DNA of 36,349 nt from a virus. Taxonomy: Duplodnaviria > Heunggongvirae > Uroviricota > Caudoviricetes. The stretch covers positions 1 to 36,349 of IMG/VR virus record IMGVR_UViG_2718217867_000002, one strand, 5' to 3'. Position numbers and translations under genes: made by a program. Under the pieces are notes generated by a model. The model searched no databases and was not told where the DNA came from. It saw only the letters and a list, made by a program, of their open reading frames with translations. Below, in pieces: positions 10,044-35,700 of this stretch (positions are counted from its first letter, which is position 1; each line of letters opens with the position of its first letter).

Positions 10044-10119
10044 GGCCCTTTAGCTCAGTGGTGAGAGCGAGCGACTCATAATCGCCAGGTCGCTGGTTCA
10101 AATCCAGCAAGGGCCACCA
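10044..10119 (+). tRNA. tRNA with CAT anticodon, Ile2-like (ileX/ileZ-type); could be called Met from the anticodon alone
   Basis: 76 nt; acceptor GGCCCTT/AAGGGCC; anticodon loop ACTCATAAT; TTCAAATCC T-arm; CCA encoded; resembles E. coli ileX. Confidence 0.8.
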
Positions 10120-10120
10120 G

Positions 10121-10197
10121 CCGCCACTAGCTCATCAGGAAAGAGCGTCAACCCTTTAAGTTGAGTGTACGAGGTTCGAGTCCCCGGTGGCGGTCCA
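10121..10197 (+). tRNA. tRNA-like gene of uncertain isotype (anticodon loop CCTTTAA, reads as UUU/Lys but with C at position 33 and an A-C mismatch in the T-stem); possible pseudo-tRNA
   Basis: Acceptor CCGCCAC/GTGGCGG with CCA; D-arm TAGCTCATCAGGAAAGAGC; T-loop TTCGAGT. The cloverleaf folds by hand but has non-canonical features. Confidence 0.45.
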
Positions 10198-10199
10198 GT

Positions 10200-10275
<76 letters not shown>

Positions 10276-10278
10276 TAT

Positions 10279-10353
<75 letters not shown>

Positions 10354-12233: not shown

Positions 12234-12411
12234 AAAACGGCCAAGGATAATCCGCTAAAGATTCGCCGGTGGCGAAAGAGAGCCAAGGTGTCAACCTACG
12301 CTATTACTTATGATAATGCAACAGACGAAGCGGGACATTCAGGTGCATAACAAAGCGTGGCAGGTGAACTGCAAACCTGAAAAGGCGCAAAAATCTGCGC
12401 CAGAATGGTAG

Positions 12412-12897
12412 TTATTTTGTGGTTTTGAAAAGTTTCATGTACTGATTGATAGGTTTTCCTGAGTAAGAATCTGTCCCTGGCTCAGGAGTATCAGATAAAA
12501 CTTTTGCAGCTAATTTGTTGGAGGCTTGATTACCAACCCCGACAATAGCCTCTACATAGAATTCATTGAAGGAATTTCTAAATCCGTATTGCATTTCTTC
12601 AATGCTGGCGATGAGAAGTTGAGTACCGATGCCTTGCGCTTTATATTCATCGGCTACTGCATAGCCAACGCCAAAGCATGGTTTACCTTCAACAAACTCT
12701 GCAGGGACATATATAGCAACACCTTTAACATTTTCTCCTTCAAAGAATGCATAAGTAAACCGTGGTGTACCCTCTGCATCATCCAAAAGCACCTTCATAT
12801 TTGGGTGAACTATGCATGGTGAAGGCTTAATCAGACCATTAGAAAAGGCGTATTGAAAACTAATTAATGAGTCTGTTGGATCAACGAGTTCTGGCAT
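12412..12897 (-). CDS. GNAT-family N-acetyltransferase, antisense to the phage late genes (moron)
   Basis: 161 aa; motif AQGIGTQLLIASIEEM fits the GNAT acetyl-CoA-binding motif A; AT-rich flanks; hairpin GGCGCA-aaaatc-TGCGCC near 12376-12395 downstream on the minus strand. Confidence 0.7.
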   Translation of the reverse strand: MPELVDPTDSLISFQYAFSNGLIKPSPCIVHPNMKVLLDDAEGTPRFTYAFFEGENVKGVAIYVPAEFVEGKPCFGVGYAVADEYKAQGIGTQLLIASIEEMQYGFRNSFNEFYVEAIVGVGNQASNKLAAKVLSDTPEPGTDSYSGKPINQYMKLFKTTK

Positions 12898-13141
12898 TTT
12901 GAGTCCTATGTATTTTGATATAAGCGATTCAACATACTACTTTCTTACGTTTAATTCTTTAACATTAACGAGCCAGGATACGAAATTTTGAAAAAGAGTA
13001 AAGTTTTTAATAATTCATTCAAAGCATATCGCATGTGCACATCTAAGAAAGGCTTTCAGCTGTGAGCCTGGGTAAACCGTAAACTTTCGGCGACTCTGCC
13101 GTGCGACAGGTTCACGTCTAACATGTCTAAAAGGAAGAGTT

Positions 13142-13342
13142 ATGAAGTTTCAGGTCGCTAAACTGTATCGTGGTAAACATTTCGCAGGGTATGGGATTGC
13201 AGTTGATGGTGAGTTACTGGAAGGGCAGCTTTCCGCCAGGACAGAGTCACGCGGAGGCGAGCCACCAACAGTCACTGTGACTTTCAGACTGACAGCAGAA
13301 CATATCGAGAATCAGCCCGTCATTCAACTGAACAGGGGGTGA
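13142..13342 (+). CDS. Hypothetical small protein (66 aa)
   Basis: ORF with AAAGGAAGAG RBS; immediately upstream of the HNH gene. Confidence 0.4.
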   Translation: MKFQVAKLYRGKHFAGYGIAVDGELLEGQLSARTESRGGEPPTVTVTFRLTAEHIENQPVIQLNRG

Positions 13343-13349
13343 GGTATTT

Positions 13350-21078: not shown

Positions 21079-21107
21079 CCCACCCGCCGCTGGCGGTTTT
21101 TTTTATT
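21079..21107 (+). terminator. Intrinsic terminator-like hairpin before the major tail gene
   Basis: CCGCC-gct-GGCGG followed by eight T. Confidence 0.4.
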
Positions 21108-21121
21108 TTCAGGAGACGAGT

Positions 21122-21826
21122 ATGTCCTCTAATTTTGAACGTTCTCAGCAGACCAAAGTCATGATCTCGTCTGCACCGGTAACGGCAGAAACGCTGAGTT
21201 CTGCCAGTTTTCTTGAACTGAGCTGTACGATTAAAGAGGTTCAGTTTACCGCCGGGCAGAAACAGGATATTGATGTCACCACGCTGTGTTCTGTTGAGCA
21301 GGAAAATATTAACGGTCTTGGTGCCGCGTCAGAGATTTCCATGTCAGGCAACTTTTATCTGAATGCTGCCCAGAACGCGTTGCGCAGTGCCTATGACAAT
21401 GACACCACGTATGGCTTTAAAGTTATTTTTCCGTCAGGCAACGGATTTACCTTTATGGCAGAGGTGCGTCAGCATACCTGGTCTGCAGGAACCAATGGAG
21501 TTGTGGCTGCAACGTTTTCCCTGCGCCTGAAAGGTAAACCTGTACTGACGACAGAGCCACTGAAAGTGAAGGTCGATTTAAACAGCACGCTGCAGGTTTC
21601 TGCCGGAGCGAAACTCGAAATGGTGGTTGAGGCTGCCGGTGGTGTGCCGCCTTATTCTTATGTCTGGAAGAAAGGTGGTTCTCCTGTTTCCGGACAGACG
21701 GCGGCAACGTTCAGTAAGGCATCAGCAGCATCCGGTGATGCCGGTGCGTATACCTGCGAGATTTCTGATTCAGCAAGCCCGGTTAGCAAGGTGACCTCCA
21801 CTTCCTGCACTGTTACCGTCAGTTAA
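21122..21826 (+). CDS. Major tail protein with C-terminal Ig-like (Big_2-type) domain
   Basis: 234 aa; CAGGAGACGAG RBS; Ig-like C-terminus (GGVPPYSYVWKKGGSPVSGQTAATF...GAYTCEISD). Confidence 0.85.
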   Translation: MSSNFERSQQTKVMISSAPVTAETLSSASFLELSCTIKEVQFTAGQKQDIDVTTLCSVEQENINGLGAASEISMSGNFYLNAAQNALRSAYDNDTTYGFKVIFPSGNGFTFMAEVRQHTWSAGTNGVVAATFSLRLKGKPVLTTEPLKVKVDLNSTLQVSAGAKLEMVVEAAGGVPPYSYVWKKGGSPVSGQTAATFSKASAASGDAGAYTCEISDSASPVSKVTSTSCTVTVS

Positions 21827-22212
21827 TGAGGATAGATGTGATGACTAAAAATATCCGTAATCTGGCACTGGCAACGATGTCGGGGTTTCGCCATAAAACT
21901 GTTGATGTGCCTGAATGGGAAGGGGCAACGGTTGTATTACGGGAACCTTCTGCAGAAGCCTGGTTGCGCTGGCAGGAGATCGTTAAAGCAAAAGATGATG
22001 AGACACCGTTATCCGTTGCGGAGCGCGCCCGCCGAAATCTGGAGGCAGATGTTGAACTGTTCATTGATGTTCTGTGTGATACCGGACTGCAACCTGTATT
22101 TTCAGAGGATGATCGTGAACAGGTGATTGCCGTGTATGGCCCGGTGCATGCGCGGCTTCTTCGGCAGTCTCTGGAACTGATCAGTGATGCCGGTGAGGTT
22201 AAAAAAAAGTAG
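21826..22212 (+). CDS. Tail assembly chaperone G-like (short product)
   Basis: 128 aa ending ...GEVKKK; stop lies inside an A8 run; followed by a -1 frame ORF as for lambda G/GT. Confidence 0.75.
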   Translation: MRIDVMTKNIRNLALATMSGFRHKTVDVPEWEGATVVLREPSAEAWLRWQEIVKAKDDETPLSVAERARRNLEADVELFIDVLCDTGLQPVFSEDDREQVIAVYGPVHARLLRQSLELISDAGEVKKK

Positions 22213-22514
22213 CGCTTCCGGGGATGCGTTTTCTGATGATGCTGGCGCTCAGGATGGGGCGCACATTGTCAGAGTTACGCCGGGAAATGTCAGCATCAGA
22301 AATCATGATGTGGGCAGAATTTGACAGGTTCAGCCCGCTGGGTGACGAGCGGGCTGATATCCGGGCTGCCCAGATAGTTTCAGCTGTTTACGGTGCGCAG
22401 GGGGTCAAAGTGCCACTGAATGATGCGCTTCTTCAGTGGGAGAAGGAGCAGACAGAAGGCACCTCAGATCCATTTGCTGAGATTGAGAAGGCATTATTTG
22501 TTGCAGCTCGATGA
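22203..22514 (+). CDS. T-like segment of the G-T tail assembly chaperone fusion, reached by -1 programmed frameshift
   Basis: Slippery heptamer A_AAA_AAG at about 22203-22209; the downstream ORF 22224..22514 is in the -1 frame relative to G and has no start codon or RBS of its own. Confidence 0.65.
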   Translation, partial: KKVALPGMRFLMMLALRMGRTLSELRREMSASEIMMWAEFDRFSPLGDERADIRAAQIVSAVYGAQGVKVPLNDALLQWEKEQTEGTSDPFAEIEKALFVAAR

Positions 22515-22571
22515 TCTTTTCACTTGACTGGATTATTATTCCCATTTTATTGAGAAAGTAAGGAAACATTG

Positions 22572-22913
22572 ATGGAATTTTTACTTATTTCAATAGTTTT
22601 GGGACTAATTCCAGCTATTATTGCGAAAAGCAAAGGTCGCTCATTTTTAGGATGGTGGGTATATGGTGCGATGATCTTTATTGTTGCTCTGGTTCATTCG
22701 CTAGTAATCCAAAGAGATGAGAAGGCACATGAACAACAAATGGTAAGCAATGGCATGAAGAAATGCCCTTACTGTGCGGAGTTGATCAAAGAAGAGGCTA
22801 TTAAATGTAAGCATTGCGGTAGTGATTTAATTTGCAATGCAGATAGTTCCGTTTCACAAAAAACGGATGATGAATATCTTCAGGAAGCAAGGCGTAAGGC
22901 CGGACTTCTTTAA
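22572..22913 (+). CDS. Moron-encoded membrane protein with C-terminal zinc ribbon (2 TMDs plus CPYC-x12-CKHC)
   Basis: ATG at 22572 with AAGGA RBS (the ORF track starts at the TTG at 22569); AT-rich; own intrinsic terminator. Confidence 0.6.
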
Positions 22914-22920
22914 AGAATAC

Positions 22921-22949
22921 AAAAACCGCTTCGGCGGTTTTTTTTCGTC
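22921..22949 (+). terminator. Intrinsic terminator after the moron gene
   Basis: AAAACCGC-ttcg-GCGGTTTTTTTT. Confidence 0.55.
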
Positions 22950-22955
22950 CGGAGA

Positions 22956-25900
22956 ATGAGTGTGGCGACATTACGTGAACTGATTATTAAAATCTCGGCA
23001 AACTCCCGGTCATTCCAGTCAGAGATATCCCGGGCTTCGCGTATGGGGCAGGATTACTACCGCACCATGCAGAACGGAGGCCGACAGTCTGCTGCTGTAT
23101 CCCGTGAAATGCGGCGTGCACTGGCAGAAGTGACGGATCAGATAAATACAGCTAAATCTTCGGCACTGAACATGACGGTGGCATTTGCCGGGGCTTTTGC
23201 TACCGGTCATCTTATTTCTCTCGCCGATGAGTGGAATTCAGTAAATGCCCGTCTGAAGCAGGCCTCACAGTCCAGTGATGATTTTCAGGCATCACAGCGT
23301 GAATTAATGGCGATCAGCCAGAGAACGGGGACGGCGTTTTCTGATAACGCCAGCCTTTTTGCCCGTTCTGCAGCTTCCATGCGGGAGTATGGTTACAGTT
23401 CTGAGGAGGTACTGAAAGTCACCGAGGCGATCTCCACGGGCCTGAAATTATCCGGTGCCAGTACAGCAGAAGCCAGTTCGGTGATCACGCAGTTCAGTCA
23501 GGCTCTGGCGCAGGGAGTGCTGCGTGGTGAAGAGTTTAACTCGGTGAATGAGAACGGCGATCGTGTTATTCGTGCGCTGGCTGCGGGAATGGGAGTTGCC
23601 CGTAAGGATCTGAAGGCCATGGCGGATAACGGAAAACTGACCGCCGATAAGGTTGTTCCTGCACTGATTAGTCAGCTTGGGGCATTACGTGATGAATATG
23701 CGGCAATGCCTGATACGGTTTCATCCTCTGCAACCAAAGTTGAAAACGCCTTTATGGCCTGGGTTGGTGGTGCGAACGAGGCAAGTGGAGTGACGAAGAC
23801 GCTCTCCGGTGTGCTGAATGGTATTGCAGGCAATATTGACACCGTGGCAACCGCTGCCGGTGCTCTGGTTGCCGTCAGGGTAGCCCGATATTTTGGCAAT
23901 ATGGCGTCGTCTGCTGGATCTGCAACTGCCGGATTAATTACTGCAGCCAGAAACGAAGTGGCTCTTGCTGAAGCGCAACTTCGGGGGACACAGATAGCAA
24001 CAGCCAGGGCGCGTGCGGCGGTTTATCGTGCGCAACAGGCGGTTGTTGCTGCTCGCGGTACCGAAAGGCAGGCAGCCGCAGAAGCGAAACTGGCTGCTGC
24101 CCAGGCATCACTTACCCGTAATATTGCGGCCAGAACAGCAGCACAGACAACGCTGAATAGTGTCACGTCAGTGGGAAGTCGTCTGTTAAGTGGAGCACTG
24201 GGACTGGTTGGTGGGGTGCCGGGGCTTGTCATGCTGGGGGCCGCGGCCTGGTACACGATGTATCAGAATCAGGAGCAGGCCAGAGAATCTGCACGCCAGT
24301 ATGCCGCAACAATCGACGAAATTCGCCAGAAAACGTCGGCAATGTCGCTTCCTGAAGCGTCAGATAATGAGGAAAAGACGCGACAGGCACTGAAGGAGCA
24401 GAACAGGTTAATTGACGAGCAGAAAAGTAAGATTAAATCCTTACAGGAAAAAATTGCTGGCTATCAGTATGTGCTGGCAAACCCGGGCTGGACAACCGAT
24501 AACGGTTTTATGATTAACCACATGACGTCGGTAAAAACAGTCACAGAAGGGCTTGCAGAAGCAACAAATCAACTGGCAGTTGAACAGTCCCGTCTCACCC
24601 AAATGCAGGGCAAAGCGCAATCCATTCAGGATGTGCTTGCCGGGCTGGAGGAGCGACGAGTGGCGTTGATCCGTCAACAGGCAGCGGAACAAAACAAAGC
24701 GTATCAGTCCCTGTTGATCATGAATGGGCAGCATACCGAGTTTAATCGCCTTCTCGGGCTTGGTAATGAATTACTTCAGCAGCGACAGGGGCTGGTGAAT
24801 GTACCATTACGGCTGCCACAGGCAACCCTGGATGATAAACAGCAGACCGCACTGAATAACAGCAAGCGCGAACTGGCTCTGTCCCGCCTTAAGGGGGAAG
24901 CGCGTGAGCGTGCCCGACTGGGCTATGCTGCGGATGATCTCGGCTTTGTGGGGGAGGCATATCAGACAGCCAGACAGAATTATATCAATAACTCACTGGA
25001 TGCCTGGCGAAATAACCAGGCAAATAAACCCAAAGCGCATAAAAAGACCGAAGCGGAAAAAACAGAAGATATTTATAAACGGCTGATTAAACAGCAAAAA
25101 GAACAGATAGCACTGGCAGGGCAGAATACTGAACTGGCTAAGATGAAATATCAGGTCAGTCAGGGCGAATTATCAACCCTGTCAGAAGCGCAGAAAAAAA
25201 CGCTTTTACAGAATGCAGCACTCATCGACCAGAAAAAGATTCGTGAGCAGCTTGCCGCGTATGAAAGCAGTCTGGCGGACAGTAATGCCAGTGCCCGGGC
25301 ATCTGACGATGCGCAGTTGCTGGGATATGGTGAAGGCTCACGGATGCGTGAACGACTCCAGGAAATGTGGAGTATCCGGCAGGCGTTTGAGCAGAAAAAT
25401 AACGAGCTACTGAGACAGTATCAGGCCGGAGAAATTGAAGAAGCCCTGTGGAAACAGGAAAAATCGCTGAATGAGAAATATCTGGAAGAGCGTCTCAGCG
25501 ATCAGCAGGATTATTATGCAAAGGCTGATGCTTTACGCAGTGACTGGAATGCCGGCCTCCAGGAGGGACTGACGAACTGGGTCGACAGTGCCACCGATTA
25601 TGCTTCGCAGGCGGCAGATGCTGTCGTTTCCACTATGGACGGGCTGGTATCAAATATTTCCGATGCACTGGCCGGAAATGTTGTGGACTGGCGAAACTGG
25701 GGGAGTTCAATTCTCCAGGAAGTTTCAAAAATTCTGATGAACGCTGCCATCGTTAACGGGCTGAAGTCACTTTCCAAAAGCATGTCCGGTGCCGGAGGAT
25801 GGCTTGGTACGGTCGGCGACTGGCTTTCCGGTGCAGTGGCAAACGCAAAAGGTGGTGTTTACACATCGGCAAATCTGAGTGCTTACAGTAACACTATTGT

Positions 25901-26201
25901 GGATACACCGACGTATTTTGCTTTTGCGAAAGGTGCCGGGCTGATGGGCGAGGCCGGGCCTGAAGCTATCATGCCACTGACACGGGCAGCGGACGGCTCT
26001 CTTGGGGTCAGAGCCATTGGCAATGTGAATGGTGGCGGGGGATTTGTTTATTCTCCCGTGTATCACATCAGTATTCAGAATAAAGGGAGCAATGGCGAGA
26101 TAGATACGCAGTCAGCCAGGGGGCTGGTGGATCTGATCGACAGCAGGGTTGTGTCAATTATGCAGTCATCACGTCGGGATGGAGGATTGTACAGTGCCTG
26201 A
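22956..26201 (+). CDS. Tail tape measure protein (H-like)
   Basis: 1081 aa; Ala/Gln-rich coiled-coil; precedes M-L-K-I-J. Confidence 0.9.
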   Translation: MSVATLRELIIKISANSRSFQSEISRASRMGQDYYRTMQNGGRQSAAVSREMRRALAEVTDQINTAKSSALNMTVAFAGAFATGHLISLADEWNSVNARLKQASQSSDDFQASQRELMAISQRTGTAFSDNASLFARSAASMREYGYSSEEVLKVTEAISTGLKLSGASTAEASSVITQFSQALAQGVLRGEEFNSVNENGDRVIRALAAGMGVARKDLKAMADNGKLTADKVVPALISQLGALRDEYAAMPDTVSSSATKVENAFMAWVGGANEASGVTKTLSGVLNGIAGNIDTVATAAGALVAVRVARYFGNMASSAGSATAGLITAARNEVALAEAQLRGTQIATARARAAVYRAQQAVVAARGTERQAAAEAKLAAAQASLTRNIAARTAAQTTLNSVTSVGSRLLSGALGLVGGVPGLVMLGAAAWYTMYQNQEQARESARQYAATIDEIRQKTSAMSLPEASDNEEKTRQALKEQNRLIDEQKSKIKSLQEKIAGYQYVLANPGWTTDNGFMINHMTSVKTVTEGLAEATNQLAVEQSRLTQMQGKAQSIQDVLAGLEERRVALIRQQAAEQNKAYQSLLIMNGQHTEFNRLLGLGNELLQQRQGLVNVPLRLPQATLDDKQQTALNNSKRELALSRLKGEARERARLGYAADDLGFVGEAYQTARQNYINNSLDAWRNNQANKPKAHKKTEAEKTEDIYKRLIKQQKEQIALAGQNTELAKMKYQVSQGELSTLSEAQKKTLLQNAALIDQKKIREQLAAYESSLADSNASARASDDAQLLGYGEGSRMRERLQEMWSIRQAFEQKNNELLRQYQAGEIEEALWKQEKSLNEKYLEERLSDQQDYYAKADALRSDWNAGLQEGLTNWVDSATDYASQAADAVVSTMDGLVSNISDALAGNVVDWRNWGSSILQEVSKILMNAAIVNGLKSLSKSMSGAGGWLGTVGDWLSGAVANAKGGVYTSANLSAYSNTIVDTPTYFAFAKGAGLMGEAGPEAIMPLTRAADGSLGVRAIGNVNGGGGFVYSPVYHISIQNKGSNGEIDTQSARGLVDLIDSRVVSIMQSSRRDGGLYSA

Positions 26202-28586: not shown

Positions 28587-31500
28587 ATGGGTAAAGGCAG
28601 CAGTAAGGGGCATACCCCGCGCGAAGCGAAGGACAACCTGAAGTCCACGCAGCTGCTGAGTGTGATCGATGCCATCAGCGAAGGGCCGGTTGAAGGTCCG
28701 GTGGATGGATTAAAAAGCGTGCTGCTGAACAGTACGCCGGTGCTGGACAGTGAGGGGAATACCAATATCTCCGGCGTCACGGTGGTGTTCCGGGCAGGTG
28801 AGCAGGAGCAGACACCGCCGGAGGGATTTGAATCCTCCGGCTCCGAGACGGTGCTGGGTACGGAAGTGAAATATGACACGCCGATCACCCGGACCATCAC
28901 GTCGGCAAACATTGACCGTCTGCGTTTTACTTTCGGCGTGCAGGCACTGGTGGAAACCACCTCAAAGGGTGATCGGAATCCGTCGGAAGTCCGCCTGCTG
29001 GTTCAGATACAGCGTAACGGTGGCTGGGTGACGGAAAAAGACATCACCATTAAGGGCAAAACCACCTCGCAGTATCTGGCCTCGGTGGTGGTGGATAACC
29101 TGCCGCCGCGCCCGTTTAATATCCGGATGCGCAGGATGACGCCGGACAGCACCACAGACCAGCTGCAGAACAAAACGCTCTGGTCGTCATACACCGAAAT
29201 CATCGATGTGAAACAGTGCTACCCGAACACGGCACTGGTCGGTGTGCAGGTGGACTCGGAGCAGTTCGGCAGCCAGCAGGTGAGCCGTAATTATCATCTT
29301 CGCGGGCGCATTCTGCAGGTGCCGTCGAACTATAACCCGCAGACGCGGCAATACAGCGGTATCTGGGACGGAACGTTTAAGCCAGCATACAGCAACAATA
29401 TGGCCTGGTGTCTGTGGGATATGCTGACCCACCCGCGCTACGGCATGGGGAAACGTCTTGGTGCGGCGGATGTGGATAAATGGGCGCTGTATGTCATCGG
29501 CCAGAATTGCGATCAGTCGGTGCCGGACGGCTTTGGCGGCACGGAGCCGCGCATCACCTGTAACGCTTACCTGACCACACAGCGCAAGGCGTGGGATGTG
29601 CTCAGTGATTTCTGCTCGGCGATGCGCTGTATGCCGGTATGGAACGGGCAGACGCTGACGTTCGTGCAGGACCGACAGTCGGATAAGGTGTGGACCTATA
29701 ACCGCAGTAATGTGGTGATGCCGGATGATGGCGCGCCGTTCCGCTACAGCTTCAGCGCCCTGAAGGACCGCCATAATGCCGTTGAGGTGAACTGGATTGA
29801 CCCGAACAACGGCTGGGAGACGGCGACAGAGCTTGTTGAAGATACGCAGGCCATTGCCCGTTACGGTCGTAATGTCACGAAGATGGATGCCTTTGGCTGT
29901 ACCAGCCGGGGGCAGGCACACCGCGCCGGGCTGTGGCTGATTAAAACGGAGCTGCTGGAAACGCAGACCGTGGACTTCAGCGTGGGTGCTGAAGGGCTTC
30001 GCCATGTACCGGGCGATGTCATTGAAATCTGCGATGATGACTATGCCGGTATCAGCACCGGCGGGCGCGTGCTGGCGGTGAACAGCCAGACCCGGACGCT
30101 GACGCTCGACCGTGAAATCACGCTGCCATCCTCCGGTACCACGCTGATAAGCCTGGTTGACGGAAGTGGCAATCCGGTCAGCGTGGAGGTCCAGTCCGTC
30201 ACCGACGGCGTGAAGGTAAAAGTGAGCCGTGTTCCTGACGGCGTTGCAGAATACAGCGTGTGGGGGCTGAAGTTGCCGACGTTGCGCCAGCGCCTGTTCC
30301 GCTGCGTGAGTATCCGTGAGAACGATGACGGCACGTATGCCATCACTGCCGTGCAGCATGCACCGGAAAAAGAGGCCATCGTGGATAACGGGGCGCACTT
30401 TGACGGCGACCAGAGCGGCACGGTGAATGGTGTCACGCCGCCAGCGGTGCAGCACCTGACTGCCGAAGTCACCGCAGACAGCGGGGAGTATCAGGTACTG
30501 GCCCGCTGGGACACGCCGAAGGTGGTGAAGGGTGTGAGCTTTATGCTTCGCCTGACCGTGGCAGCGGACGACGGCAGTGAGCGGCTGGTCAGCACGGCCC
30601 GGACGACGGAAACCACATATCGCTTCAGGCAGCTGGCGCTGGGAAATTACAGGCTGACAGTCCGGGCGGTAAATGCATGGGGACAGCAGGGCGATCCTGC
30701 GTCGGTATCGTTCCGGATTGCCGTACCGGCAGCACCGTCGCGGATTGAGCTGACGCCGGGCTATTTTCAGATAACCGCAACGCCGCATCTTGCCGTTTAT
30801 GATCCGACGGTACAGTTTGAGTTCTGGTTCTCGGAAAAGCGGATTACCGATATCAGGCAGGTTGAAACCACAGCCCGCTATCTTGGCACGGGGCTGTACT
30901 GGATAGCTGCCAGTATCAATATTAAGCCGGGCCATGATTATTATTTTTACGTTCGCAGTGTGAACACCGTCGGCAAATCGGCATTCGTGGAGGCTGTCGG
31001 TCGGGCGAGCGATGATGCGGAAGGTTACCTGGATTTTTTCAAAGGCAAGATAACCGAATCCCATCTCGGCAAGGAGCTGCTGGAAAAAGTCGAGCTGACG
31101 GAGGATAACGCCAGCAGACTGGAGGAGTTTTCGAAAGAGTGGAAGGACGCCAACGATAAGTGGAATGCCATGTGGGCTGTCAAAATTGAGCAGACCAAAG
31201 ACGGCAAACATTATGTCGCGGGTATTGGCCTCAGCATGGAGGACACGGAGGAAGGCAAACTGAGCCAGTTTCTGGTTGCCGCTAACCGTATCGCATTTAT
31301 TGACCCGGCAAACGGGAATGAAACGCCGATGTTTGTGGCGCAGGGCAATCAGATATTCATGAACGACGTGTTCCTGAAACGCCTGACGGCACCCACCATT
31401 ACCAGCGGTGGCAGTCCTCCGGTATTTTCCCTGACATCAGACGGAAAGCTGACCGCTAAAAATGCGGATATCAGTGGCAGTGTGAATGCGAACTCCGGGA

Positions 31501-32000
31501 CGCTCAACAACGTCACGATAAATGAAAACTGTACGATTAAGGGCATGCTGGAGGCGAATCAGGTCAGAGGTGATTTTGTTAAAACAGTATCCAAATCATT
31601 CCCGAAAAAGGCTGGTACGTGGGGTAACACGGAAACACCAGACGGGACGGTTACAGTCACCATCAGCGATGATCATAACTTTGACCGTCAAATCATTATT
31701 CCGCCCATTATCTTTAACGGTATAGCGTATGACGATCCGGGAAGTGGTGATAACCCGGGAGGTACAAGGTACACGGGGTATGGTTTTGAAGTTCGCAAAA
31801 ACGGCGTATTAATCGCATCCAGAGAAACTAAAGGGGCCATTCCCGGTAGTTACAGTGCGGTTATTGATATGCCGAGTGGCAGGGGAAGCGTCACTCTGGA
31901 GTTTAAGATTTTCCAGAAAGGCAATCAGGGGGCAGGCAATATCACCGACTGTACGGTGATTGTGACCAAAAAGGCTGCTTCCGGCATCAGTATTCGTTGA
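28587..32000 (+). CDS. Host specificity protein J (central tail fibre / tip attachment protein)
   Basis: 1137 aa; N-terminus [43 protein letters not shown] as in lambda J. Confidence 0.95.
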
Positions 32001-32734: not shown

Positions 32735-35700
32735 ATGGCAGTAAAGATTTCAGGTGTACTGAAAGACGGTGCAGGTAAACCGGTACAGAACTGCACAATC
32801 CAGCTGAAAGCAAAACGTAACAGCACCACGGTGGTGGTGAACACGGTGGCATCTGAAAATCCGGATGAAGCCGGGCGTTACAGCATGGACGTTGAGTACG
32901 GTCAGTACAGCGTTATTCTGTTGGTGGAAGGCTTCCCGCCATCGCATGCCGGGACCATCACCGTGTATGAAGACTCACAACCGGGTACGCTGAATGATTT
33001 TCTCGGTGCCATGACGGAGGATGATGCCCGTCCGGAGGCACTGCGCCGCTTTGAACTGATGGTGGAAGAGGTGGCGCGTAACGCGTCCGCAGTGGCACAG
33101 AACACGGCAGCCGCGAAGAAGTCAGCCAGCGATGCCGGCACATCAGCCCGTGAGGCGGCAACCCATGCGACTGATGCTGCAGGCTCAGCACGTGCAGCCA
33201 GCACATCAGCCGGGCAGGCCGCGACGTCGGCTCAGTCAGCGTCTTCCAGCGCAGGAACGGCATCAACAAAGGCTACTGAAGCATCAAAAAGTGCTGCCGC
33301 TGCAGAGTCCTCAAAAAGCACTGCAGCCACCAGTGCCGGTGCCGCGAAAACGTCTGAAACGAATGCTGCAGCGTCACAAAAATCTGCAGCCACTTCTGCA
33401 TCCACCGCGACCACGAAAGCGTCAGAAGCTGCCACCTCAGCCCGGGATGCGGCGGCCTCAAAAGAGGCAGCGAAATCATCAGAAACGAACGCATCATCAA
33501 GTGCCAGTAGTGCAGCTTCCTCGGCAACGGCGGCAGGAAATTCCGCGAAGGCCGCAAAAACGTCTGAGACGAATGCGGATAACAGCGCACAGGCGGCAGC
33601 GGCCTCACAAACTGCATCGGCAAACTCCGCGACAGCAGCCAAAAAATCAGAAACCAACGCGAAAAATAGCGAGGCAGCAGCAAAAAGCAGCGAAACCAAC
33701 GCTAAAGCCAGCGAAACTAATGCTAAATCCAGTGAAACAAACGCGGCGAAATCTGCGGCGGACGCACTTAATTATCGCAACCAGGCACAATCAATTGTTG
33801 GTAACAATATTGGGCTTGGTGAAGTTGCCATGACCTGCACTGATATCTCTGTTGAGCCATCAGGTTATATTGGATTTGTCAGGATTTACATCTCAGCGAA
33901 AGGTTATCCATCAGTAGCGTCTAGTGCCGGGGATAATCTTATTTCTGGTTATATAGTTAGATCAGAAGTGTCAACAAAAAGATATTCCGGTCTATTTGTT
34001 GGTTCAGATACAAAATCATTGTATTCGTACATTTACAGCCAAAGTTCTGGCCCGCAATGGACCCGTCACGCAAGAAAGGATGAAGTAAGCCGCTTTAGTC
34101 AAAATGAATCAACAACTCGCGTATATGGCCCAACTGGTGATCGTTTCCTTGAAATCCATACAAACGGGAATTGGGGGGTTTATAATTCTTCTTCTGGAAA
34201 ATGGTCTCCGTTAGGTTTAGCCCAGGGTGGCACTGGCGCAAATAGCCTTAATGACGCCAAAACTAATTTGCAAATTCCTGAGGGTGGATTAACCAAAGCT
34301 ATAACCTTGCAAGCGCCAGAAGGTGCAGAGGATGGCAAATACTACCCTGTCATAATAGACACATCCGCAATGGAAGGTTACGGCAACCTGGCATGTCCTA
34401 TTGATATAAAAACAGCAGGGCGTTCAGCATCAGACCCGATGAATAGTAATACATTTAGTGGATATTTTCGATGCGGTGGCTGGAGCGACACCAGAGATAT
34501 AGCTTGCGGCTCATTTGTTGCCTATGACAAAAATGAGCTAGGGATACTTTGCCTTAAAGTATCGCAGAAAGATTACCCGCAATATGTAGCGTTCTATATC
34601 CATAAATCCGCTTTCCCGATATTATTGCAAACAGGCTTTAAAGCGCGAGTTACTGTACCAAAAGAAGATTATATACTCGGCACAAACGGCGTTAAATATA
34701 AATTTGGTGTATCAACGTCAACAGAGGGTAACGCCGAGAACTCTGTTAAAAATGCTCTCGATTTCACTGGCGGTGAAAGCGGGTTTTATAGCAACCTGCC
34801 GTTCCGGCAAGGCTACGCCTATAATGTCGCATTAACAAACGGGATTGTTCTTGATAATAATTTTGTCTTAACCGCTCCAGTATTTATGAACAATGGCGAG
34901 GTTAAAGCAACAAAATCTTTCACCGCGTACGGTACGGACGTTTCAAACAGAACATTTGTTTCTCAAAGATTACAATCCGAAGGAGGTCCGGTTGTCGATC
35001 AAACTGAACTAAGGGCTGGTAACGGGCAAGGTGAAATTGTTGTCAGGGACATAAATAATTCAGGGAACAGTAAATTCTTTAATTTTAACCTTGATGGTAC
35101 CTTCAGTTCTTATCAGGGATTGGTTGTTCACACAGGGCAAAACTGGAGCACTCAACATACAGAGAATGTAAATAAGTTTAAGCCAATAGCAGGGAGCGCA
35201 GGCGGTCCTGACGGAACAATGGTTGTTGGCGGGTTCCATGCTCAATTTAGCGGTAATTACGTCACACAATTCGCCGGTCGCAACTCCAAATTTTGGGCAA
35301 GAAGCTTTGAGGCTGGGGTTGATAAGGGATGGAAACGACTATTAACAGTAGACGATCTCAATTCATCTACCGATCTTGCTGTCAGGTCATTAACCACATC
35401 TAACCCGGTAAAATCTGGCGGAGGGCGGATTGATGTCCTTGGAAGCACGTCAGACTATAGCAAAATGGATTGCTTTGTACGTGGGTTTGATAGCACCGGT
35501 AATTCTCTCGCGTGGGCGTTGGGTTCATCAGTCGGCGTAAGTAAGATGCTGTCGCTAAAAAATTTCTTTAGCGGAGCTGAGATACTGTTAAATGGTAATG
35601 ACGGCGCGGTTCAACTCAAAACAGGTGCTGTTAACGGGGCTAAAGCGCAGGCGCTCACTATCAACAAGGATGAGGTTAACTCAACTGTTGATTTAACTCT

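Follow-up and report, generated by a model that had tools for sequence, protein, structure and literature searches.

A zinc-ribbon membrane protein gene as optional cargo between the tail chaperone and tape measure genes of an HK97-like Escherichia coli prophage

Why should a phage tail operon carry a gene for a small membrane protein between its tail assembly chaperone and tape measure genes? The question is raised by a DNA stretch of 36,349 nucleotides (positions 1 to 36,349 of the IMG/VR virus record IMGVR_UViG_2718217867_000002; hereafter the window), which is an HK97-like lambdoid prophage of Escherichia coli. The Ecol_545 prophage, located beside yodB/zinT, is 95–98% identical to the window across most of its length. 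Between the T frame of the chaperone genes G–T and the gene of the tape measure protein (TMP), the window encodes a 113-residue protein with a membrane hairpin and a zinc ribbon. A first reading of the letters alone (the original prediction) had described this locus as a self-contained moron of uncharacterised accessory function. The zinc-ribbon gene is best explained as a moron, as Hendrix used the term: an accessory gene that prophages may or may not carry in the chaperone–TMP slot of HK97-like tail modules. Its kind is already known, namely a moron-encoded small membrane protein in the slot occupied by gene 15 (gp15) of HK97, and the family itself is uncharacterised.

The predicted 113-residue open reading frame (ORF) was confirmed at 22572–22913 between the chaperone and tape measure genes, with the chaperone flanks identified by Pfam matches of G and T, and its claimed ribosome-binding site was verified as AAGGA at 22560–22564 (Table 1). 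The two transmembrane helices that had been predicted are borne out as two hydrophobic helices, comprising residues 2–18 and 25–47 by hydropathy and residues 2–21 and 25–45 in the AlphaFold model (mean predicted local distance difference test score of 76). An invariant basic loop, SKGRS, joins them. In the model, a short helix (residues 50–59) lies between the hairpin and the ribbon, and the ribbon itself adopts a β-hairpin knuckle whose best fold matches in Foldseek are zinc knuckles. The ribbon matches Zn_ribbon_3 (PF13248) at 34.7 bits against a cut-off of 27 bits (E = 1.1e-8), and its zinc binding is putative. The cysteine motif had been read as CPYC-x12-CKHC; the spacing is actually x10, giving CPYC-x10-CKHC with C65, C68, C79, and C82. 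The C-terminal helix is kept in the compared members from the T–TMP slot, and other tails replace it in relatives from other slots.

At a threshold of E ≤ 1e-3, the protein has approximately 1600 homologues, almost all bearing just the name "zinc ribbon domain-containing protein". A full-length profile match (E = 2e-50) assigns it to PHROG 8436 (function unknown), with residues 1–111 aligned to profile positions 1–108 of 110. The alignment of 111 members has 17 invariant columns, of which 11 lie in the membrane hairpin (G11, P14, A18, K21, G22, F25, W28, W29, Y31, A39, and H42) and four correspond to the ribbon cysteines. Comparison of the copies from E. coli, Salmonella, and Cronobacter gives a ratio of nonsynonymous to synonymous substitution rates (dN/dS) of 0.08–0.12 at saturated synonymous sites, and the gene is under strong purifying selection. 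The number of homologues, the dN/dS values, and the invariant columns together identify the ORF as a real gene rather than a chance frame. The 11 invariant hairpin residues suggest a specific intramembrane interface, not a simple anchor. The conserved module consists of the hairpin and the ribbon (residues 1–86), and the C-terminal tails range from none to about 110 further residues.

The searches provided little further identification. Pfam and NCBIfam gave no match beyond the generic zinc ribbon, a sequence search of the PDB returned only bL32-type knuckles (E ≥ 0.14), and Foldseek returned only RanBP2/NZF zinc knuckles from the PDB (E ≥ 0.1) and two uncharacterised phage "zinc-ribbon" proteins from BFVD. 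No functional study of the protein, of PHROG 8436, of WP_000394908.1, or of phage FSL SP-016 was found in the searchable literature. Sequence and Foldseek searches likewise gave no match to a characterised structural protein, in agreement with the original prediction. Its statement that the protein could not be assigned to a named family holds insofar as Pfam, NCBIfam, PADLOC, PDB, Foldseek, and the literature offer no characterised relative; it needs amendment in that the family is catalogued as PHROG 8436 and has an architecture like that of Imm_superinfect proteins with a zinc ribbon. The family is thus catalogued but uncharacterised, and its fold and domain content differ from those of every characterised exclusion protein.

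The predicted optional status of the gene is well supported. Among 5426 complete E. coli genomes, 901 match the junction of the zinc-ribbon gene; 43 of these 901 contain the gene, and most of the rest show an exact 401-bp gap. Eleven sequenced E. coli phages (Evi, phi467, and several vB_EcoS isolates) also lack the 401 bp between flanks that are 97–98% identical. The presence or absence of the gene at the same site in close relatives, as expected of a moron, is accompanied by a base composition unlike that of its neighbours, also a moron property: the GC content is 29.8% in the leader and 38.6% in the ORF, with 0.32 at third codon positions (GC3), compared with 50–53% in G, T, and TMP. The original prediction had set against its own view the possibility of a conserved, syntenic tail-module component. 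The gene is indeed strictly syntenic where present, but since most close relatives lack it and phages without it are viable, it is not structural.

Optional presence does not imply recent arrival. In all 80 of the closest IMG/VR loci (62–100% identity), the gene is intact and lies between T and TMP, and the identity of its product rises and falls with that of G, T, and TMP (r = 0.86, 0.97, and 0.86, respectively). The gene has therefore long resided in the slot, diverging together with the neighbouring tail genes, and a recent insertion was rejected. Its GC content is 39–42% (GC3 of 0.32–0.38) in four lineages, even with flanks of 57–61% GC and despite the co-divergence, which indicates a maintained composition, not a sign of recent arrival. 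Divergence from the empty-slot relatives starts within the last ~12 codons of T (~22479) and ends at ~22924, just before the terminator hairpin. The T protein of Evi is full length (96 residues), with a C-terminus that is different but lineage-typical. This observation favours cassette exchange by recombination in the conserved flanks over a clean insertion or deletion, and for the same reason the empty-slot phages were not taken as deletion derivatives. As judged from these alignments, the gene-bearing and empty states look like alternative cassettes. Accordingly, the self-contained insert of the original prediction is to be redrawn as a long-resident gene followed by a terminator that belongs to the backbone.

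The position had also been considered normally gene-free. It is instead the slot of HK97 gene 15, the element for which the term "moron" was coined (PMC3594210). We surveyed this slot at the species level in genomes with the same T family, and 24 loci could be assessed. Nine were empty, four carried the zinc-ribbon gene (in Leclercia, Superficieibacter, Enterobacter, and another Enterobacteriaceae genome), and 11 carried other cargo, so that 15 of the 24 were occupied; the zinc-ribbon gene was the commonest occupant in this sample. The other cargo consists mostly of lipoproteins, signal-peptide proteins, or membrane proteins of unknown function, such as the lipoproteins in Kosakonia, Pectobacterium, and Brenneria and the signal-peptide proteins in Symbiopectobacterium. 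Its only Pfam matches are a tetratricopeptide repeat protein and a weak VasI-like match. These contents mark the slot as a hot-spot for envelope-directed cargo.

HK97 gp15 is an inner-membrane protein that is expressed from the prophage and blocks genome entry of HK97 and HK75, with a specificity residing in the tail region of the incoming phage (PMC3594210). The gp15 and zinc-ribbon genes share the slot between the T frame and TMP of an HK97-like tail operon, as well as a terminator just before the TMP start, and each encodes a small, predicted or known inner-membrane protein that is optional among relatives. In contrast, their sequences are unrelated. gp15 comprises 62 residues with one hydrophobic helix and no cysteines and matches Pfam YebO (PF13974) at 1.2e-8, whereas the zinc-ribbon protein has two helices and a Cys4 ribbon and gives no YebO match at E ≤ 1. 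Their terminators also differ in sequence. The gp15 junction occurs in six of the 5426 complete E. coli genomes, compared with 43 for the zinc-ribbon gene, making the latter junction about seven times commoner than the textbook one.

The leader had been described as promoter-like and AT-rich. Its low GC content is confirmed, and the comparison of 41 distinct upstream sequences revealed two conserved islands, (G/A/T)TGA(C/T)N and TA(G/T/A)(G/T)AT, separated by exactly 17 nt of otherwise variable spacer. In the window, this footprint occupies 22511–22539 and begins inside the stop codon of T, just beyond the limit of 22515 set by the original prediction. A consensus scan calls GTGACA-17-TAGGAT in the orthologous loci of Salmonella and Cronobacter. 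The scan for a sigma-70 promoter in 22515–22571 called none, and the ATGATC-17-TATTAT of the window, with eight of 12 consensus matches, was not called either. The hexamer TTGACT (22524–22529) was rejected as the −35 element, because it has no acceptable −10 element and is not conserved in relatives. The conserved −35/17 nt/−10 arrangement suggests the phylogenetic footprint of a promoter, which is not equivalent to proof of one.

The strong terminator had been counted as part of the insert. Its hairpin and T-run are real, but the element is a backbone feature, since an identical hairpin directly follows T in the gene-less phage Evi. The 21-nt core AACCGCTTCGGCGGTTTTTTT (22925–22945) is exact in 59 retrieved loci, including those whose zinc-ribbon proteins are just 67–70% identical, and Cronobacter has a compensatory CCCCGC/GCGGGG version of the terminator. 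The core is identical to the base where the neighbouring coding sequences have saturated synonymous divergence, and it is also found in the empty-slot phages. Its conservation exceeds what the hairpin alone requires, for which transcript-level control before TMP and a recombination boundary are candidate explanations. Rfam searches of both strands returned only sub-threshold matches driven by the terminator. Together, the conserved footprint and the conserved terminator fit an independent transcription unit.

A link to known exclusion proteins is provided by gp065 of the Pseudomonas phage YMC11/02/R656, a member of PF14373 (Imm_superinfect; 1.6e-18) fused to the same type of ribbon. BLASTP aligns the zinc-ribbon protein with gp065 at 5e-15 over residues 3–86, a range that takes in the [IL]PAIIA motif as well as the basic loop. 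Both proteins comprise a two-helix hairpin with this motif and loop, a linker, and a CPYCAExIKxxAIKC+xCG ribbon (+ denotes K or R), and both are encoded in the chaperone–TMP slot. The combination of PF14373 with Zn_ribbon_3 is widespread, and on sequence grounds the Imm+ribbon proteins are treated here as the closest architectural relatives. Imm of phage T4 is itself a PF14373 member (7e-16), differing in that it has no ribbon. Binding of T4 Imm to the T4 tape measure protein has been reported, together with a block of genome translocation, and the same mode has been proposed for gp15 (bioRxiv 10.64898/2026.03.06.709160).

Farther members of the family occupy other sites. They were found at the L–K junction in Edwardsiella, at the K–I junction in Atlantibacter, after the tailspike gene at an Enterobacter prophage end, near Rha/KilA in the Klebsiella phage KP12, and in a non-prophage chromosomal islet of Pantoea. 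Relatives in the Pseudomonas phages YMC11/02/R656 and vB_PaeS-D14C again lie in the chaperone–TMP slot, and ribbon-only relatives lie upstream of I in Vibrio phages and at the M–L junction in a Providencia phage. The vB_PaeS-D14C homologue (BK061477.1; 103 residues with two helices and a ribbon; 3465–3776 of the retrieved locus) is unannotated, and a 58-residue ORF of the opposite strand is annotated in its place. Just upstream of it is another unannotated ORF of 138 residues with a lipoprotein-like start (3012–3428 of the retrieved locus). The proteins of Providencia phage PSTCR8lys (M–L; 991–1548 of the retrieved locus) and Vibrio phage P2 (upstream of I; 1189–1518 of the retrieved locus) combine the same ribbon with different membrane anchors. 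The ribbon-plus-anchor design recurs across siphophage tail operons, with interchangeable membrane parts.

What, then, might the protein do? The best-supported, though tentative, reading is superinfection exclusion by a block of genome entry at the inner membrane. Embedded there, the protein, consisting of the hairpin, the Cys4 ribbon, and the short C-terminal helix, would keep the DNA of incoming siphophages from passing through the membrane, and the phages excluded would include close relatives of its own phage. The block might be achieved by binding the incoming tape measure protein or a host inner-membrane component that the phage uses, with the conserved hairpin serving as the interface to either, as has been proposed for HK97 gp15 in the same slot and reported for T4 Imm. 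In the lysogen, the gene would be transcribed from its own weak promoter and transcription would stop at the terminator; in the lytic cycle, late-operon transcription would include it. Several lines of evidence favour this reading, in which lysogen expression, the exclusion phenotype, and its target are inferred. The gene is optional at an otherwise near-identical junction, and it combines strong purifying selection with 11 invariant hairpin residues. It shares its slot with gp15, an exclusion protein with tail-region specificity. Its ribbon and architecture resemble those of the Imm_superinfect+Zn_ribbon_3 proteins, of which gp065 occupies the same slot, and T4 Imm of the same Pfam family is reported to bind the tape measure protein. 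The promoter-like footprint and the terminator, both conserved, accord with it as well. Relatives are inserted at positions usual for morons, namely other siphophage tail junctions and prophage ends, and lipoproteins, signal-peptide proteins, and membrane proteins are concentrated in the slot.

Comparison with other small phage membrane proteins places this proposal in context. SieA of P22 and Ltp of TP-J34 are likewise prophage-expressed envelope proteins that stop incoming DNA. They differ from the zinc-ribbon protein in that their folds and sizes are unrelated and neither has a zinc ribbon; Ltp, a lipoprotein of a Gram-positive phage, is said to target the tape measure protein, an account attributed to Bebeacua et al. 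2013. SieA is described in PMC3594210. Class II holins (two-helix proteins, for example of the S21 type) are also small and have two membrane helices and a charged C-terminus. This assignment was rejected, as the gene lies outside the lysis cassette, which has its own class II holin, and the protein bears a Cys4 ribbon and can be missing from viable phages. The tail-assembly blockers Tab and Tai were considered as well; Tab, whose gene lies between those of the terminase, is unrelated.

Several observations weigh against superinfection exclusion by this protein. PADLOC-DB v2 contains no defence model that matches it, the search giving two spurious weak hits, both with E above 1e-3. The −35 element of the window is weak, with three of six consensus matches. 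The relationship to Imm is just suggestive when the hairpin is considered by itself. The hairpin does not match the Pfam model of PF14373 at E ≤ 1. With the ribbon removed, hhalign against PF14373 gave P = 0.0025 with a probability of 12% over 40 columns (reversed controls, P ~0.3–0.4), cross-searches with hidden Markov models scored 5–6 bits above reversed decoys, and the comparison of the hairpin profile with T4 Imm alone gave P = 0.008. For these reasons, the protein is not filed in PF14373. In other bacteria, moreover, PF14373+ribbon genes are found next to the gene of a CI-like repressor or an integrase or at prophage ends, not adjacent to TMP, and the idea that Imm+ribbon genes are always TMP-adjacent was rejected; these sites are typical lysogen-expressed positions.

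The membrane topology adds a further difficulty. Counts of lysine plus arginine are 2.3 in the hairpin loop, which lacks acidic residues, and 3.0 in the 15-residue stretch that follows helix 2, which also has 4.0 aspartate plus glutamate residues; there is no N-terminal tail. The net charge favours an N-out/C-out orientation and the lysine plus arginine counts slightly favour the reverse, so that the signal is near-balanced and ambiguous; these counts are equally balanced in the Imm+ribbon set. A Vibrio phage protein has an 83%-identical ribbon at its extreme N-terminus, followed by a single helix, and a Providencia phage protein has KKHQETRR ahead of its ribbon. Both arrangements predict a cytoplasmic location for these homologous ribbons. 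A Cys4 zinc site fits the cytoplasm better, and the N-terminus of T4 Imm is reported to be periplasmic. A periplasmic ribbon, derived from the net charge, was withdrawn in view of the balanced lysine plus arginine counts and the relatives with N-terminal ribbons, and we lean slightly towards a cytoplasmic one. If the ribbon is cytoplasmic, only the hairpin and its six-residue loop would be exposed to the incoming tail.

A cytoplasmic ribbon would also suit an abortive-infection effector, an unlikely alternative in which the hairpin is a latent membrane disruptor and the ribbon senses a phage product, upon which the protein oligomerises, depolarises the membrane, and kills the cell before progeny are produced. 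Two N-terminal helices with a small C-terminal soluble domain resemble the two-helix effectors of the cyclic oligonucleotide-based antiphage signalling system (CBASS), retron, and Pycsar systems. The cytoplasmic ribbons predicted for the Vibrio and Providencia homologues agree with such a sensor, and the variable C-terminal domains after a constant hairpin and ribbon could represent sensor swapping. However, this is a single protein of 113 residues with no partner gene and no PADLOC match, its hairpin, with aromatic, histidine, and proline invariants, is too conserved for a generic pore former, and, for a suicide effector, transcription with the late operon of its own phage would carry a risk. 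The protein might instead be a lysogenic-conversion factor that alters host physiology (transporter regulation, envelope stress, or metal handling) for the benefit of the lysogen; regulation of transporters is common among small inner-membrane proteins. The diversity of the other slot cargo and the Pantoea homologue in a non-prophage islet are consistent with such a role, and many morons act on host physiology (PMC3594210). The strong tie of the family to phage tail modules and prophage ends, together with an architecture common to Imm-type proteins, makes lysogenic conversion quite unlikely.

The gene could also serve the lytic cycle of its own phage, as a late membrane protein that stops secondary infection or abortive injection or that tunes lysis or tail maturation. 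It is co-oriented within the late tail operon and would therefore be transcribed late, it has long resided in the slot and its divergence parallels that of its neighbours (r of up to 0.97 across G, T, and TMP), and T4 Imm acts in lytic growth (bioRxiv 10.64898/2026.03.06.709160). Isolated phages such as Evi and phi467 nevertheless dispense with it at 97–98% identical flanks, a complete lysis cassette is present elsewhere in the element, and the private promoter footprint and terminator suggest that the gene is expressed apart from the late operon; a lytic role is thus distinctly improbable. At the other extreme, the absence of the gene from most close relatives and its atypical composition might indicate a non-functional ORF or a decaying remnant. 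The probability of this is negligible, given a dN/dS of 0.08–0.12 at saturated synonymous sites, about 1600 homologues with invariant Cys4 and hairpin residues, and intact genes in 80 of 80 viral loci; a spurious ORF is effectively refuted by the invariant columns and dN/dS.

Superinfection exclusion, the reading preferred here, can be extended to a more specific proposal, which is doubtful: the family would be a distant, ribbon-bearing branch of the T4 Imm superfamily that neutralises the incoming tape measure protein in the inner membrane, tail modules would carry matched blockers, and the slot would be a general home of entry blockers. Inheritance together with its own TMP gene, as reflected in the co-divergence, would provide each tail module with a blocker matched to its closest competitors. 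The entry blockers of the slot would then include gp15, the zinc-ribbon family, the Pseudomonas Imm+ribbon proteins, and perhaps the slot lipoproteins. If exclusion is correct, enterobacterial prophages would commonly carry an uncharacterised entry blocker in the form of the zinc-ribbon protein, and T4 Imm, HK97 gp15, and many "zinc ribbon domain-containing" hypothetical proteins would be joined by interference with tape-measure-mediated membrane passage. Such knowledge would help to predict phage host range in lysogens and would be relevant to phage therapy. Evi and phi467, which have near-identical tails and an empty slot, constitute a ready natural experiment.

Table 1. Positions of the zinc-ribbon gene, its parts, and the surrounding tail genes and signals in the window
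Feature	Position	Strand	Basis or remark
Major tail protein gene	21122–21826	+	
Tail assembly chaperone G	21826–22212	+	Pfam Phage_TAC_1, 2.8e-58
−1 slippery heptamer A AAA AAG of G–T	22203–22209	+	Read off the sequence
T frame of the G–T fusion	22209–22514 (ORF 22224–22514; stop TGA 22512–22514)	+	Pfam Phage_tail_T, 1.6e-20
Variable (mosaic) segment relative to empty-slot phages: T 3' end, leader, zinc-ribbon gene	22479–22924	+	Evi alignment; ~38% GC
−35-like hexamer ATGATC, overlapping the T stop codon	22511–22516	+	Footprint; aligns with GTGACA/GTGACT/TTGATA in relatives
−10-like hexamer TATTAT, 17 nt past the −35-like hexamer	22534–22539	+	Footprint; aligns with TAGGAT/TATGAT/TAAGAT in relatives
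Shine–Dalgarno sequence AAGGA, ATG 7 nt downstream	22560–22564	+	Read off the sequence
Zinc-ribbon membrane protein gene, 113 residues	ATG 22572 to stop 22913	+	PHROG 8436; WP_000394908.1 in near-identical prophage
Two-helix membrane hairpin, residues 2–47	22575–22712	+	Hydropathy, AlphaFold model, invariant columns
Cys4 zinc ribbon (putative zinc site), residues 62–86 (C65, C68, C79, C82)	22755–22829	+	Pfam Zn_ribbon_3, invariant columns, modelled β hairpin
C-terminal helix, residues 99–109	22866–22898	+	AlphaFold model, member comparison
Intrinsic terminator, AAAAACCGC-TTCG-GCGGTTTTT + T-run	22921–22945	+	ΔG −12.2 kcal/mol, z = −3.1 against shuffles
Tape measure protein gene, GTG start	22962–26201	+	Pfam families of the Cronobacter orthologue; Ecol_545 prophage annotation

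The neighbouring genes and the remainder of the prophage showed additional features. The GTG start of TMP at 22962 is preceded by GGAG (22951–22954), and ATG 22956 is an alternative start. According to the annotation of the near-identical prophage, the lysis cassette (its own class II holin, a lysozyme, and a lysis protein) lies about 10 kb upstream of the zinc-ribbon gene. Another terminator-like hairpin, CCGCC-GCT-GGCGG with a T8 run, is located at 21084–21106 between the tail completion and major tail protein genes; in the HK97 annotation such a terminator follows the major tail gene, unlike the hairpin of the window, which precedes it. The major tail protein has a C-terminal immunoglobulin-like domain (Pfam Ig_2/Ig_3, residues 154–233), and the PHROG relatives that share this domain are annotated as Hoc-like decoration proteins. 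A 674-residue open frame on the minus strand (29187–31211) is antisense within the tail tip gene J (28587–32000, plus strand) and is probably a shadow ORF. Four tRNA genes are clustered at 10044–10353, downstream of the Q antiterminator region; the first is a Met (CAT) tRNA according to ARAGORN and a tRNA-Ile in the RefSeq annotation of the near-identical prophage. The segments 4769–6577, 12374–13349, 31046–31982, and 33085–36349 have no or weak matches to the Ecol_545 prophage and may represent further mosaic cargo or tail-fibre differences.

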